Shown here piece after piece: positions 58,509-61,920 of a stretch of DNA of 64,000 nt. The stretch spans positions 5,837 to 69,836 of the forward strand of contig CAMELR010000002.1 of the NCBI GenBank assembly GCA_945923775.1, read 5' to 3'. Position 1 is the first letter of the stretch. Every line of letters begins with the position of its first letter. The position numbers and the translations under genes were made by a program. The notes below the pieces were generated by a model. It was not told where the DNA came from, did not search any database, and worked only from the letters and a program-made list of their open reading frames with translations. The stretch is from an uncultured Clostridia bacterium. Its GTDB lineage: Bacteria; Bacillota; Clostridia; Oscillospirales; Ruminococcaceae.

Positions 58509-60449
58509 TCATCTGGTCTTTTCTGCGTTTTCCTTGAGGATCTTTGCGATAACGTCCTCAACGGGGGAAGCGCCGAGGTCGCCGTCCTTGCGTGAACGGA
58601 GGGATACGGTGTTGTCCTCGACTTCCTTATCGCCGAGAATGAAGAAGTACGGGATCTTCTCAAGCTGAGCCTGACGGATCTTGTAGCCTATCTTCTCGTT
58701 GCGGTTGTCGACGGTAACGCGGATATTCATATCGTCGAAGCGCTTTGCAATGCTCTCTGCGTATTCCTTTGCACGGTCTGTGATCGGGAGGATACGAACC
58801 TGCTCAGGAGACAGCCACAGCGGGAGCGCGCCTGCGTACTTTTCGAGCAGGTAAGCGAGGGTACGCTCATAGCAGCCGAGGCTTGTACGGTGAATGATAT
58901 ACGGGTTCTTCTTGGTGCCGTCTACGTCAACGTACTCCATGCCGAAGCGCTGTGCGAGGAGCATATCTATCTGGATAGTTACCAGTGTGTCTTCCTTGCC
59001 GAATACGTTCTTGTACTGGATATCGAGCTTCGGGCCATAGAATGCAGCCTCGTCGATACCGATGGTGTACTGAACGCCAAGGTCGTCGAGAATTGTTTTC
59101 ATTGTAGCCTGAGCAATCTCCCACTGCTCGGGAGTGCCCTCGTACTTGTTCTTAGGGTTAGCGGGATCCCACTGTGAGAAGCGGAATGTGCAGTCCTCAA
59201 GCAGACCTACAGTATCGAGGCAGTACTTGGCAAGTTCCAGGCAGTTTCTGAATTCGTCCTCGAGCTGCTCAGGACGGAGGATATAGTGACCCTCGGAGAT
59301 AGTGAACTGACGAACTCTGATAAGGCCGTGCATCTCGCCGCTGTCCTCGTTGCGGAACAGTGTGGAGGTCTCGGTAAGTCTCATCGGGAGGTCGCGGTAG
59401 CTGCGCTGTCTGTTCAGGAATACCTGATACTGGAACGGGCAGGTCATCGGGCGGAGTGCGAAGCATTCCTTGGTCTCGTCGTTGGGGTCGCCGAGGATGA
59501 ACATGCCGTCGAGGTAGTGATCCCAGTGGCCGGAGATTTTATAAAGCTCGCGCTTTGCCATATACGGAGTCTTTGTGAGCTGGCAGCCGTGCTTTGCTTC
59601 AACGTCCTCTACCCAGCGCTGCATGATCTGAACTACCTTAGCTCCCTTGGGCAGGAGAATCGGCAGACCCTGGCCGATGTAGTCGACAGTGGTGAAGTAC
59701 TCGAGTTCTCTGCCTATCTTGTTGTGGTCGCGGCGCTTTGCGTCCTCGAGAGCCTCAAGATGAGCGTTGAGCGCGTCCTTGGACGGGAATGCAGTACCGT
59801 AGATACGGGTGAGCATCTTGTTCTTTTCGCTTCCGCGCCAGTAAGCGCCGGTCACGGAGGTGAGCTTGAACGCCTTGACCGGAGAAGTGGACATCAGGTG
59901 CGGACCTGCGCACAGGTCGGTGAAGTCGCCCTGCTTGTAGAAGGAGATGGGTTCGCCCTTGCCTGCGTGTTCCTGGCAGAGTTCAACCTTGTAGGGTTCG
60001 CCCTGTTCTTCGAGGTACTTTATAGCTTCGTCGGGAGCCATAGTGAAGTGTTCGAGGCGTATGGACTCCTTAACGATCTTCTTCATTTCTGCTTCGATTT
60101 TTGCCAGGGTGTCGGTGGTGAAGGGCTCCTCGGTGTCGAAATCATAGTAGAAGCCGTTCTCGATAGCCGGGCCGATGGCGAGTTTTGTCGCCGGGAAAAG
60201 GCGCTTTACTGCCTGAGCCAGAACGTGGGAGGCGGTGTGGTTGAATGCTCTCTGTCCCTGCTCGTCCTCGAATGTGAGGAACTTAACGGTGCAGCCGTCG
60301 GTGAGGGTGGTGCGGAGGTCGCATACCTTTCCGTCGATTTCTGCTGCACATGCAGTCTTAGCCTCTCCGAGTTCTCTTGCCGCGTCGAATGCGGACAGCG
60401 GAGCGTCAAACTCCTTGATCTCGCCGTTTCCTAGTGTTACCTTGATCAT
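58509..60449 (-). CDS. thrS: threonine--tRNA ligase
   Basis: 646 aa with TGS domain (MIKVTLGNGEIKEF), second additional domain (HTASHVLAQAV), class II core (FRNEDSGEMHGLIRVRQF) and anticodon-binding domain. Confidence 0.96.
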   Translation of the reverse strand: MIKVTLGNGEIKEFDAPLSAFDAARELGEAKTACAAEIDGKVCDLRTTLTDGCTVKFLTFEDEQGQRAFNHTASHVLAQAVKRLFPATKLAIGPAIENGFYYDFDTEEPFTTDTLAKIEAEMKKIVKESIRLEHFTMAPDEAIKYLEEQGEPYKVELCQEHAGKGEPISFYKQGDFTDLCAGPHLMSTSPVKAFKLTSVTGAYWRGSEKNKMLTRIYGTAFPSKDALNAHLEALEDAKRRDHNKIGRELEYFTTVDYIGQGLPILLPKGAKVVQIMQRWVEDVEAKHGCQLTKTPYMAKRELYKISGHWDHYLDGMFILGDPNDETKECFALRPMTCPFQYQVFLNRQRSYRDLPMRLTETSTLFRNEDSGEMHGLIRVRQFTISEGHYILRPEQLEDEFRNCLELAKYCLDTVGLLEDCTFRFSQWDPANPKNKYEGTPEQWEIAQATMKTILDDLGVQYTIGIDEAAFYGPKLDIQYKNVFGKEDTLVTIQIDMLLAQRFGMEYVDVDGTKKNPYIIHRTSLGCYERTLAYLLEKYAGALPLWLSPEQVRILPITDRAKEYAESIAKRFDDMNIRVTVDNRNEKIGYKIRQAQLEKIPYFFILGDKEVEDNTVSLRSRKDGDLGASPVEDVIAKILKENAEKTR

Positions 60450-60532
60450 ACTGAACTTCCTTTCCTTGCAGAGCTAAACAAAAGCCCTGCCGTTCAATGT
60501 AAATATTCGCAGCTTTACGCTGTGTATCTCTT

Positions 60533-60561
60533 ATTTTACTACTATTCCGCATAAAAGTCAA
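60533..60561 (-). promoter_or_regulatory. thrS promoter
   Basis: Minus strand reads TTGACT (60561-60556), 17 nt, TAAAAT (60538-60533). The leader is about 85 nt. Confidence 0.6.
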
Positions 60562-60599
60562 GTTATTTGTAGGTTTATGGCGCGAGGCTCCGACAATAA

Positions 60600-60628
60600 T
60601 TGACATGATGTACAAAGTGTAGTATAAT
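60600..60628 (+). promoter_or_regulatory. consensus promoter of the small toxin-like ORF
   Basis: TTGACA (60600-60605), 17 nt, TATAAT (60623-60628). Confidence 0.8.
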
Positions 60629-60675
60629 TAAAAGGCCGGCACTCCGGACGTCAAAAACGGAAGGAGGTGCATATC

Positions 60676-60756
60676 ATGGATACCTTCAGCTTTATATTAT
60701 CCATCATAGCAAGTGTGATCGCGTATTACATATGCAAGTGGCTCGATGGAGATTAG
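60676..60756 (+). CDS. 26-aa hydrophobic peptide, candidate type I toxin (Fst/PepA1-like)
   Basis: My own translation is MDTFSFILSIIASVIAYYICKWLDGD. AAGGAGGTG lies 6 nt upstream. It has a single TM-length hydrophobic core and a charged KWLDGD tail, and sits between a consensus promoter and a strong terminator. Confidence 0.65.
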   Translation: MDTFSFILSIIASVIAYYICKWLDGD

Positions 60757-60776
60757 TACCGGCAGGAGCACATAGC

Positions 60777-60817
60777 AAAAAACCGACCCCCGAGCTGCAA
60801 CTCGGGGGTCAATTTTT
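60777..60817. terminator. bidirectional intrinsic terminator shared by the toxin mRNA and the antisense sRNA/che operon
   Basis: GACCCCCGAG-CTGCAA-CTCGGGGGTC (60785-60810) with A6 upstream (60777-60782) and T5 downstream (60813-60817). Confidence 0.9.
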
Positions 60818-60850
60818 GTGCATACATGTGTAGAACCTTCAGCTTTCTAC
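60777..60850 (-). ncRNA. candidate antitoxin sRNA (about 75 nt) convergent with the toxin ORF
   Basis: Predicted from the consensus minus-strand promoter (60857-60885) and the shared terminator. The 5' hairpin GUAGAA-AGCUGAAGG-UUCUAC displays AAAGCUGAAGGU, which is complementary to ACCUUCAGCUUU at toxin codons 3-6. Confidence 0.6.
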
Positions 60851-60856
60851 AACTAC

Positions 60857-60885
60857 ATTATATCACTGAAAAAAAGATTTGTCAA
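60857..60885 (-). promoter_or_regulatory. consensus promoter of the antisense sRNA
   Basis: Minus strand reads TTGACA (60885-60880), 17 nt, TATAAT (60862-60857). The -35 starts 3 nt after the cheB stop codon. Confidence 0.8.
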
Positions 60886-60888
60886 GCG

Positions 60889-61920
60889 TCAGATAAGCTG
60901 ATCCTGAATGATATCAGCGATCTTGTAGAGCGGAGCCTGAACCTGCACAGCGCCGATATTGTACGCTTCCATCGGCATGCCGTAAACTACGCAGGTCGCC
61001 TTGTCCTGCCCTATCGTGAACGCTCCGGACTGCCGCATTTTAAGCAGACCGTCCGCGCCGTCCCGACCCATTCCGGTGAGGATAACGCCGATGGCGTTCG
61101 CTTTCGCAGTATCAGCGACGCTTGAGAAAAGAACGTCTACGGACGGGCAGTGTCCCGAGACCTTCTCGCCCGGCTTTGAAGATACGTAGTATCCCCTGGA
61201 ATCCCGGCAGAGCCTCAGATGATGTTCGCCTGCCCCGATAATTACGAGACCGCGCCGCAGCCGGTCGCCGTCCTCGGCTTCCTTGACCTCCATCGGGCAG
61301 TTCTTGTTGAGCCGCTCGGAATATAGCTTCGTGAATCCCGCCGGCATGTGCTGAACAACAACGGTTGCCGGGGAATCCGCAGGAAGATTTTTGATCACCT
61401 GCTCCAGTGCCTCGGTGCCTCCGGTGGAAGCCCCAAGTGCAAGAACGACATCGTTCTTGCGGAACCGCTTCGCGGTCGTGGAGAAGCTGGTGTGTACCAC
61501 TTCCGGCTCATCTGCCTTTGAGTGGTCGCCGTGGAGATCGTATGCGTTCTTTACCGCACGGCAGATGGTCTGAGCGAAGTTCTGCATTTCAGCGGTGGTG
61601 CGGGCAAGCGGTTTCTGAATGAATTCTATGCACCCTGCGTCTAGAGCCGCCTGTTTCATGTTGGTGGAGGACGACACCGTTATCACCGGAAGATAGTACT
61701 GTGGAAGCAGTTTTTTCAGGAATGCAACGCCGTCCATGCGAGGCATTTCTATGTCAAGCGTCATGACGTCCGGTTCGTATTTCAGTATCATATCCCGGGC
61801 GGAGTAGGGATCTCCGGCTGTGCCTACGACGTCTATTTCGGGATTTTCCCTTATATAGCGGGTCAGCACTTCTCTGAACAAGATAGAATCATCGACCACA
61901 AGCAGCTTGATCTTTTTCAT
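60889..61920 (-). CDS. cheB: chemotaxis response regulator protein-glutamate methylesterase CheB
   Basis: 343 aa. Receiver domain (KLLVVDDS..MTLDIEMPRMDG) plus methylesterase domain (GASTGGTEAL, HMPAGFT, TGMGRDGA). Confidence 0.93.
   Translation of the reverse strand: MKKIKLLVVDDSILFREVLTRYIRENPEIDVVGTAGDPYSARDMILKYEPDVMTLDIEMPRMDGVAFLKKLLPQYYLPVITVSSSTNMKQAALDAGCIEFIQKPLARTTAEMQNFAQTICRAVKNAYDLHGDHSKADEPEVVHTSFSTTAKRFRKNDVVLALGASTGGTEALEQVIKNLPADSPATVVVQHMPAGFTKLYSERLNKNCPMEVKEAEDGDRLRRGLVIIGAGEHHLRLCRDSRGYYVSSKPGEKVSGHCPSVDVLFSSVADTAKANAIGVILTGMGRDGADGLLKMRQSGAFTIGQDKATCVVYGMPMEAYNIGAVQVQAPLYKIADIIQDQLI

Follow-up and report, generated by a model that had tools for sequence, protein, structure and literature searches.

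A probable par/Fst-type toxin-antitoxin module between thrS and cheB in an uncultured Ruminococcaceae genome, and the peptide family to which it belongs

Why should two perfect promoters face one another in the short intergenic gap between thrS and cheB, two core genes of an uncultured Ruminococcaceae/Oscillospiraceae member? The gap lies in a 64,000-nucleotide (nt) stretch of contig CAMELR010000002.1 (positions 5,837 to 69,836, assembly GCA_945923775.1), here called the window, and an earlier note on this DNA had proposed that it holds a compact type I toxin-antitoxin module resembling the par locus (Fst, RNA I/RNA II) of Enterococcus faecalis pAD1. We observed the sequence elements themselves, the conservation of peptide and layout throughout a family (1,928 protein clusters, with a par-like order of parts in 41 of 43 distinct loci), the co-variation of repeats and helices (in 37 of 41 loci no other antisense RNA pairs better than the cognate one) and a link to the Rfam family SpF66. 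These data support the par/Fst-like reading, and we consider it very probable that the locus is a working module of this type.

The window holds a single copy of the module, made up of the following parts, in which ORF stands for open reading frame and SD for Shine-Dalgarno sequence:

60600..60628, plus strand: toxin (RNA I-like) promoter, TTGACA-17-TATAAT, 12/12 match
60635..60817, plus strand: predicted toxin mRNA of ~183 nt, its start placed from the -10 element and its end from the T-run
60667..60678, plus strand: direct repeat block a, toxin copy GTGCATATCATG, from the SD 3' edge to the start codon
60676..60756, plus strand: toxin ORF of 26 amino acids, MDTFSFILSIIASVIAYYICKWLDGD, with one hydrophobic stretch of transmembrane (TM) length, Trp22 and an acidic tail
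60682..60696, plus strand: direct repeat block b, toxin copy ACCTTCAGCTTTATA, codons 3-7
60777..60817, both strands: shared two-way intrinsic terminator, with A-run 60777-60782, hairpin 60785-60810 and T-run 60812-60817
60777..60850, minus strand: predicted antitoxin RNA (RNA II-like) of ~74 nt, both ends estimated
60818..60828, minus strand: direct repeat block a, antitoxin copy GTGCATACATG (minus-strand reading CAUGUAUGCAC), matching 60667-60678
60835..60849, minus strand: direct repeat block b, antitoxin copy, UAGAAAGCUGAAGGU in the minus RNA, within its 5' hairpin
60857..60885, minus strand: antitoxin promoter, TTGACA-17-TATAAT with a TG extension, 12/12 match

The facing promoters that the earlier note had reported are both perfect, and four such sites occur in the 64-kb window where 0.01 would be expected. 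The 26-codon ORF is present, preceded at a distance of 6 nt by the Shine-Dalgarno sequence AAGGAGGTG (60661-60669), and its peptide has the hydrophobic core and charged tail that had been described, residues 4-20 being hydrophobic and followed by K21, W22, D24 and D26. The G+C-rich hairpin was found at 60785-60810 with ten pairs, eight of them G-C, between an A-run and a T-run that would allow it to act in both directions. This shared terminator is the only region in which the predicted toxin mRNA and antitoxin RNA overlap.

What, then, could allow the minus-strand RNA to recognize the toxin mRNA outside the terminator? The window contains just two exact copies of the 12-mer ACCTTCAGCTTT, at 60682 and 60835, and three matches are found if up to one mismatch is allowed, compared with 0.28 expected. 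The repeat pair of the earlier note (60682-60693 and 60835-60846) was therefore exact as far as it went, although it was described as a single pair: the 12-mer extends to 14/15 nt, and a second block, a, had been missed, its two copies (60667-60678 and 60818-60828) differing by a single-base deletion. A diverged duplicate of the toxin start region serves as template for the 5' part of the antisense RNA, which is therefore expected to pair with the edge of the Shine-Dalgarno sequence, the start codon and codons 3-7. In the predicted duplex, block a contributes 7 + 4 bp covering the SD 3' edge and the start codon, and block b 12 contiguous bp at codons 3-7. The duplex of the antitoxin with the toxin translation start region has an energy of -32.9 kcal/mol (z = -7.1), which supports the pairing suggested previously, and formation of the dimer from the two monomers brings a gain of -30.5 kcal/mol. 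The minus RNA on its own (60850-60775, 76 nt) folds into the terminator and a 5' hairpin, GUAGA.../...UCUAC, which carries the repeat as had been anticipated (-35.9 kcal/mol, z = -5.8).

To what family does the peptide belong? Back-translation of its C-terminal motif, YYICKWLD, retrieved 95 loci in IMG/VR viral contigs, fewer than one being expected by chance according to our own estimate. About 80 of these 95 are ORFs of 25-33 codons that follow the pattern M-x(3-6)-F-L-x-S-V-x-A-x-V-V-x-YYICKWLD, end in a charged tail and have GGAGG upstream. An N-terminal pattern, MDTFSFIL, gave five matches in viral contigs, none of them a family member, and 11-12 viral matches reading ...CYYICKWLDLYH, considered as decayed toxins, were rejected as a chance match in another frame of a longer phage ORF. 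When a profile search of a large protein collection was run from an alignment seeded with the 42-residue stop-to-stop translation, it returned 1,928 protein clusters (at 90% identity) with E <= 0.01, nearly all of 29 residues and either without a name or labelled "hypothetical protein". No Pfam domain occurs in the 120 clusters listed, a few Caudoviricetes records have automatic names ("toxin", "SCIMP protein"), and some clusters occur on as many as 1,000 contigs or more. The tryptophan is invariant in the family alignment, although its column belonged to the search pattern, and members retrieved by the profile search have it too. At the TM motif the window peptide has S9-I-I-A-S13 and many family members S-V-x-A-G. 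A profile search of solved structures gave only a chance match to a transporter helix and did not retrieve Fst itself, and we found no mention of YYICKWL or ICKWLD in the literature, in a search that lay outside the supplements of Fozo et al. and Weaver 2009.

The family is also carried by plasmids. By tblastn, 255 plasmid records contain a member: 198 from Enterococcus, 32 from Streptococcus, 7 from Ligilactobacillus and 5 from Aerococcus, together with single records from Clostridium perfringens, Waltera, Mediterraneibacter and Butyricicoccus. Among the plasmid matches listed, none overlaps an annotated feature. The peptide MSELLSFFLSVLASVVAYYICKWLDGEE is found with identical upstream DNA on the C. 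perfringens plasmid p21-D-5b (L184) and on a viral-classed IMG/VR contig (L159), and a close variant with similar flanks lies on a 5.6-kb plasmid of Waltera intestinalis (L183; Lachnospiraceae), a distribution that suggests transfer between families. Two Enterococcus faecium loci, L181 (pUCH1-1, 1414-1602) and L187, encode MKILFDFVFAIMAEVAAHYICKWLDCKFAKKDSKPTR within the full convergent layout; in both the module sits beside ssb, on pUCH1-1 it is also near an AbiEii/AbiGii toxin gene, and in L187 a one-base deletion puts the start region out of frame.

Is the arrangement seen in the window shared by these relatives? Of 43 distinct family loci, 41 have a par-like order of parts: a promoter; a 5' untranslated region (UTR) with CCUCC-like bases opposite GGAGG; the short ORF; a G+C-rich hairpin with an A-run and a T-run; a repeat of 10-16 nt of the toxin's first codons, placed 3' of the hairpin; and a convergent promoter. 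The terminator is present in 41 of the 43, and the convergent promoter stands at a fixed distance in 41 loci, giving an antisense 5' part of 28-52 nt. The seven plasmid loci that we inspected, from Enterococcus, Streptococcus, Aerococcus, Ligilactobacillus, C. perfringens and Waltera, have the same layout. While the sequence of the repeat varies by lineage, it stays matched inside each locus. In line with this, the duplex between toxin start and cognate antisense RNA has a mean energy of -36.6 kcal/mol, compared with -17.0 +/- 5.0 kcal/mol for non-cognate combinations. A ranking of the partners puts the cognate RNA first in 37 of 41 loci and second in the remaining four, with a mean z of -6.8 for the cognate RNA. 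The co-variation of the repeat pair that the earlier note had put forward as a check is thus seen across the family. In two metagenome contigs (L192 and L199), a second, partial ...YICKWL... coding copy past the terminator replaces the start-region repeat, and these may be rearranged or tandem modules.

How might translation be prevented before the antisense RNA arrives? The toxin mRNA folds with an energy of -59.9 kcal/mol (z = -3.1), and its predicted structure contains three helices besides the terminator:

60635..60639, plus strand: 5' arm GCCGG, pairing with CCGGC at 60759-60763, just past the stop codon, in the minimum-energy fold
60639..60670, plus strand: SD-hiding 5' stem-loop, GCACUCC with GGAG.GUGC; the 5' UTR folded alone gives -12.2 kcal/mol
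60695..60755, plus strand: ORF-internal helix, 60695-60710 with 60741-60755, from RNAalifold on 41 mRNAs

The helices that would hide the Shine-Dalgarno sequence and the 5' end in this model were missed by the earlier note. Both are also predicted elsewhere in the family: the core of the Shine-Dalgarno sequence is predicted to be paired upstream in 36 of 40 family 5' UTRs, as against 44% in shuffled controls, and the helix between the 5' end and the 3' UTR takes eight or more sequence forms, among them GCUGCC/GGCAGC, GUUGUCAC/GUGACAAC, CCGGAA/UUCCGG and AUCGUCCGU/ACGGACGAU. Because GCUGCC/GGCAGC is common to many loci, ranking each locus' own partner against those of others does not discriminate for this helix. 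In an alignment of 41 toxin mRNAs (that of the window and 40 from the family), both sides have changed in 8 of the 15 pairs of the ORF-internal helix, with 90% of cells paired, and in at least one sequence for 13 of 13 pairs of the terminator helix. Taken together, these two helices have 89.7% of cells paired, compared with 77.8% in shuffles and 40-50% in slid controls, and both sides changed in 23 of 32 pairs. For 35 antitoxin RNAs, RNAalifold recovered only the terminator, the variable 5' parts being too poorly aligned for the 5' hairpin. In one family subgroup (alignment A3, columns 12-38; for example L097, L126 and L131), the 5' GUUGYC pairs with GGCAAC in the nearby 5' UTR or with GACAAC/GGCAAC past the stop codon, a dual pairing suggestive of alternative folds, perhaps formed during transcription, as in hok mRNA.

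A mechanism can be proposed from these parts. The plus strand would yield a ~183-nt mRNA for the 26-residue peptide and the minus strand a ~74-nt antisense RNA from the convergent promoter. Before it is bound, the mRNA would hide its Shine-Dalgarno sequence in the 5' stem-loop and its 5' end in a helix with the start of the 3' UTR, so that its own folding delays translation until the antisense RNA docks. The antisense RNA would dock through both repeat blocks and the complementary terminator, thereby blocking ribosome loading. Should the antisense RNA be lost, the membrane-active peptide would be made, and cell damage or arrest would be expected to follow.

How closely does this correspond to par itself? 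The features described for par are convergent promoters, a two-way terminator, direct repeats a and b across the translation start, a 5' stem-loop masking the Shine-Dalgarno sequence and a 5' helix, and its type of toxin has a TM helix, a conserved tryptophan, a charged tail and a P/D/S/T-x-x-x-G(C) motif (PMC7472228). The window and pAD1 par share the convergent promoters and the two-way terminator, and in both a pair of direct repeats is transcribed in opposite directions, making the antitoxin complementary to the toxin start region. They are also alike in the SD-hiding stem-loop, as predicted here, and may be so in the pairing of the mRNA 5' end. The helix between the 5' end and the 3' UTR would be the analogue of the par 5' upstream helix, though its partner segment may differ from that of pAD1. 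Judged on its sequence, then, the locus appears to have the features of par save for the YUNR loop and the strict glycine of the TM motif, with the 5' helix as a prediction only. The peptides align end to end in hhalign, with the family's ICKWLD opposite ISRVLD of Fst. Unlike Fst, the family has a TM motif without proline (S-x-x-x-S/G where Fst has P-x-x-x-G) and Trp in place of Val; the window peptide is 26 rather than 33 residues long, the terminator loop lacks YUNR, and the window copy is chromosomal and lies between core genes. PepA1 of Staphylococcus aureus (SprA1/SprA1AS), compared by description, is likewise an Fst-family peptide with a tryptophan past the TM helix and a charged tail, but its tail is basic and it has a P-x-x-x-G-C motif.

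A closer connection is provided by RF02442 (SpF66). With a gathering score of 42, this Rfam model scores the plasmid toxin mRNAs of Streptococcus pluranimalium at 93.8 bits, of Aerococcus at 65.1 and of E. faecium at 49.0 (matched regions L185 541-772, L186 550-753 and L181 1448-1665), and that of Ligilactobacillus salivarius at 30.7; the clostridial viral loci L087 and L114 gave no match. Its consensus contains AGGAGG, AUG and a 32-codon ORF read as MSLILELVLTIIADVIAGIILYFVCKWLDGKE, which ends in ...YFVCKWLDGKE. Aligned with the family in hhalign, MSLILELVLTIIADVIAGIILYFVCKWLDGKE gives a probability of 98.2% (E = 3e-14), and on the NCBIfam Fst model this SpF66-type peptide has an intermediate score of 18.9 bits. 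Judging from this ORF, RF02442, which is filed as a non-coding small RNA, is in fact a toxin mRNA. We take the genes SP2168 and SP2169 of Streptococcus pneumoniae to be fcsR and adcA, which would put F66 in the same intergenic region as Fst-A/Fst-B. F66 is a 239-nt RNA, confirmed by Northern blot, that lies between SP2168 and SP2169 of strain TIGR4 (PMC3395615). PneumoBrowse2 lists the adjacent member of the tandem, F67/srn503, as a type I toxin of the Fst family (PMC11601373). Between fcsR and adcA, Fozo et al. (2010) described tandem Fst-A/Fst-B ORFs with an antisense RNA of 65-75 nt, and found Fst-B to be toxic on over-production in Escherichia coli (PMC2887945). The pneumococcal loci (F66/srn502 and F67/srn503) and the window copy are alike in belonging to the same peptide branch and in being chromosomal; they differ in that the former are a tandem pair and the latter a single copy, with an mRNA too diverged for the Rfam model.

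Might the elements in the gap instead serve its neighbours? These are as follows:

58509..60449, minus strand: thrS, Pfam domains tRNA-synt_2b, HGTP_anticodon, tRNA_SAD and TGS
60889..61920, minus strand: cheB, Pfam domains CheB_methylest and Response_reg

From 60889 onward cheB, cheR and cheW all lie on the minus strand. On such a reading the hairpin would be the cheB terminator, the minus RNA a thrS leader or cheB 3' UTR, and the ORF and repeats fortuitous. Long regulatory leaders are frequent on Firmicute thrS genes, the hairpin directly follows cheB as its terminator in the sister species UMGS423 (L001), and in the window read-through from the che genes would end at the hairpin. Set against this, thrS has a conserved promoter-like site of its own at 60561-60533, and neither a T-box nor any other leader upstream of thrS is matched by Rfam, which has no family at gathering score in the whole window and nothing relevant at E <= 10 in 60400-60950. 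Moreover, the ORF is one of a family that counts 1,928 clusters and whose modules stand beside unrelated genes on plasmids and phages, and chance would supply 0.01 perfect promoters and 0.28 copies of the 12-mer per window. The family data effectively refute the neighbour-gene or T-box leader reading, to which we give almost no credence. The thrS leader (region 60450-60561) is itself only ~76 nt long and without a T-box, which is unusual among Firmicutes. In three relatives at 85% identity (L002-L004), the regions upstream of thrS are much longer and unrelated, and the upstream neighbour is different; in L002 and L003 no Rfam family reached its gathering score.

Returning to the toxin-antitoxin module, is it retained where its surroundings are? 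Over thrS and the che genes, nine contigs from human-gut metagenomes share 95-97.5% identity with the window and can be regarded as conspecific. In all nine the module occupies the same site, with a 100% identical peptide and a module identity of 97.4-98.6%; both copies of the 12-mer are present in eight, and the ninth (L197) ends inside the terminator. The sister species L001 is 87% identical to the window in thrS and 81% in the che genes. At L001 2786-2850 (corresponding to window 60600-60817), it has kept the hairpin and, of the toxin promoter, both hexamers with the 6 nt that precede the -10 element, the spacer having diverged, and the promoter runs directly into the hairpin, since the body of the toxin transcript (~60634-60781) and the 5' part and promoter of the antitoxin (60811-60888) are missing. 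This promoter relic reflects either a recent deletion or another use, such as antisense transcription into cheB. No family member was found in 80 thrS-linked loci of relatives. Loss of the repeat pair or the ORF from syntenic relatives had been named as evidence that would speak against a module; retention is split, in that nine conspecific contigs keep it and L001 has lost the ORF and both repeats together. Given this pattern, the module is accessory, fixed in the species and lost as a unit next door, which is typical of accessory toxin-antitoxin systems and does not refute the type I reading.

Do curated models recognize the peptide? The search with Fst/Ldr-type toxin profiles, another check that had been proposed, came out negative: the window peptide has no match in Pfam (PF13955, PF13940) and none to NCBIfam NF033608, the Fst model, for which Fst as a positive control scores 34.7 bits with a cut-off of 26. 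Ldr_toxin gives weak matches to 4 of 43 members. Several results weigh against the par/Fst-type reading. NF033608 matches 8 of the 43 family members, only weakly (E >= 0.017), Pfam Fst_toxin matches none, and the hhalign comparison of the family with Fst, at 37% probability (P = 3.6e-4), is not significant. The window scores 12.4 bits with RF02442, over the terminator part only, and the SpF66 ORF is equated with Fst-A/B by shared intergenic location and matching ORF length. A YUNR U-turn motif is missing from the terminator loop, CUGCAA (UUGCAG when read from the opposite strand), though it is not present in all par homologues either (PMC7472228), and the window peptide has S-x-x-x-S where the superfamily has P/D/S/T-x-x-x-G(C). 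To these can be added the absence of the module from L001 and all 80 relative loci, and the fact that the transcript ends, the translation block, the toxicity of the window peptide and its role at this chromosomal site are argued by analogy.

One alternative is that the locus is a type I module of the Clostridioides difficile kind (CD0956.2-RCd10, CD2517.1-RCd8 and others) rather than of the Fst/par kind. Such modules, which pair a small single-TM toxin with a convergent antisense RNA, are found like the window group in Clostridia and often in prophages (PMC6563280, PMC7699646), and their toxins show weak similarity to the window peptide in the TM region. The corresponding model, NCBIfam NF047374 (CD_typeI_toxin), is the commonest weak match in the family, with 30 of 43 members and a best E of 3.5e-4. 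On the window peptide, however, it reaches 17.6 bits with a cut-off of 60, and covers profile positions 3-18 of 51, the TM stretch. The C. difficile toxins are also longer (34-59 residues) with Lys-rich tails, and their RNAs have a long overlap that suggests control via mRNA decay (PMC6563280), whereas a terminator-only overlap and repression via 5' direct repeats, as in the window, is the par layout (PMC7472228). As SpF66 and the pneumococcal Fst region also provide a far stronger link, we regard a C. difficile-type module as very improbable here.

A second alternative is that the peptide, though controlled by an antisense RNA, is a non-toxic membrane protein of phages and plasmids, with a holin-like, exclusion or regulatory function and no part in addiction or killing. 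Many family members lie on viral contigs, Pfam Phage_holin_3_3 gives weak matches to 20 of 43 (best E = 0.0037), PHROG holin families match a few members weakly, phrog_738, of unknown function in PHROG, matches 41 of 43, and toxicity in this clade is itself argued by analogy. The holin matches nevertheless fall far below significance and are confined to the hydrophobic stretch, and we rejected a holin assignment on this basis. In addition, the module is free-standing, with its own promoters, on plasmids of 2.4-9 kb and here between housekeeping genes, not in lysis cassettes, and Fst-B, from the pneumococcal region of SpF66, is toxic when over-produced (PMC2887945). A non-toxic function is accordingly unlikely, if somewhat less so than a relationship to the C. 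difficile modules, and a toxin-antitoxin module of par/Fst type remains our preferred reading.

What would such a module mean beyond this locus? For this genome, it is one more unannotated gene pair of a well-understood type. While the Fst/par kind of module is known, the large branch to which this copy belongs, with at least 1,928 clusters and common in gut Firmicutes, their phages and enterococcal plasmids, is unnamed. It has no Pfam or NCBIfam model, and its sole Rfam entry, SpF66, is filed as a non-coding small RNA. With a dedicated protein profile and a covariance model of both RNAs, thousands of loci could be annotated, and a role in stabilising gut phages and resistance plasmids could be tested.

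At the window site, the antitoxin promoter begins 3 nt past the cheB stop codon, with no terminator in between, so that che transcripts reading through would end in the antitoxin sequence. It is possible, though we hold this only tentatively, that the YYICKWLD clade as a whole is a very large, horizontally mobile Fst-type branch (of gut Clostridia, their phages, and plasmids of Enterococcus, Streptococcus and Lactobacillales) that has been missed by current protein and RNA models and by annotation, and that the window copy has been domesticated, its antitoxin being delivered also as the 3' end of the che transcript. If this were true, repression of the toxin would be tied to expression of the chemotaxis genes at this locus, and the mobility of the clade would conflict with the published view that horizontal transfer does not spread type I systems (PMC2887945).

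Finally, another perfect TTGACA-17-TATAAT site in the window (2219-2191, minus strand) is followed by a ~260-nt leader (region 1926-2219), with an ORF at 846-1925 downstream. The leader matches no Rfam family and may be an undescribed regulatory leader.

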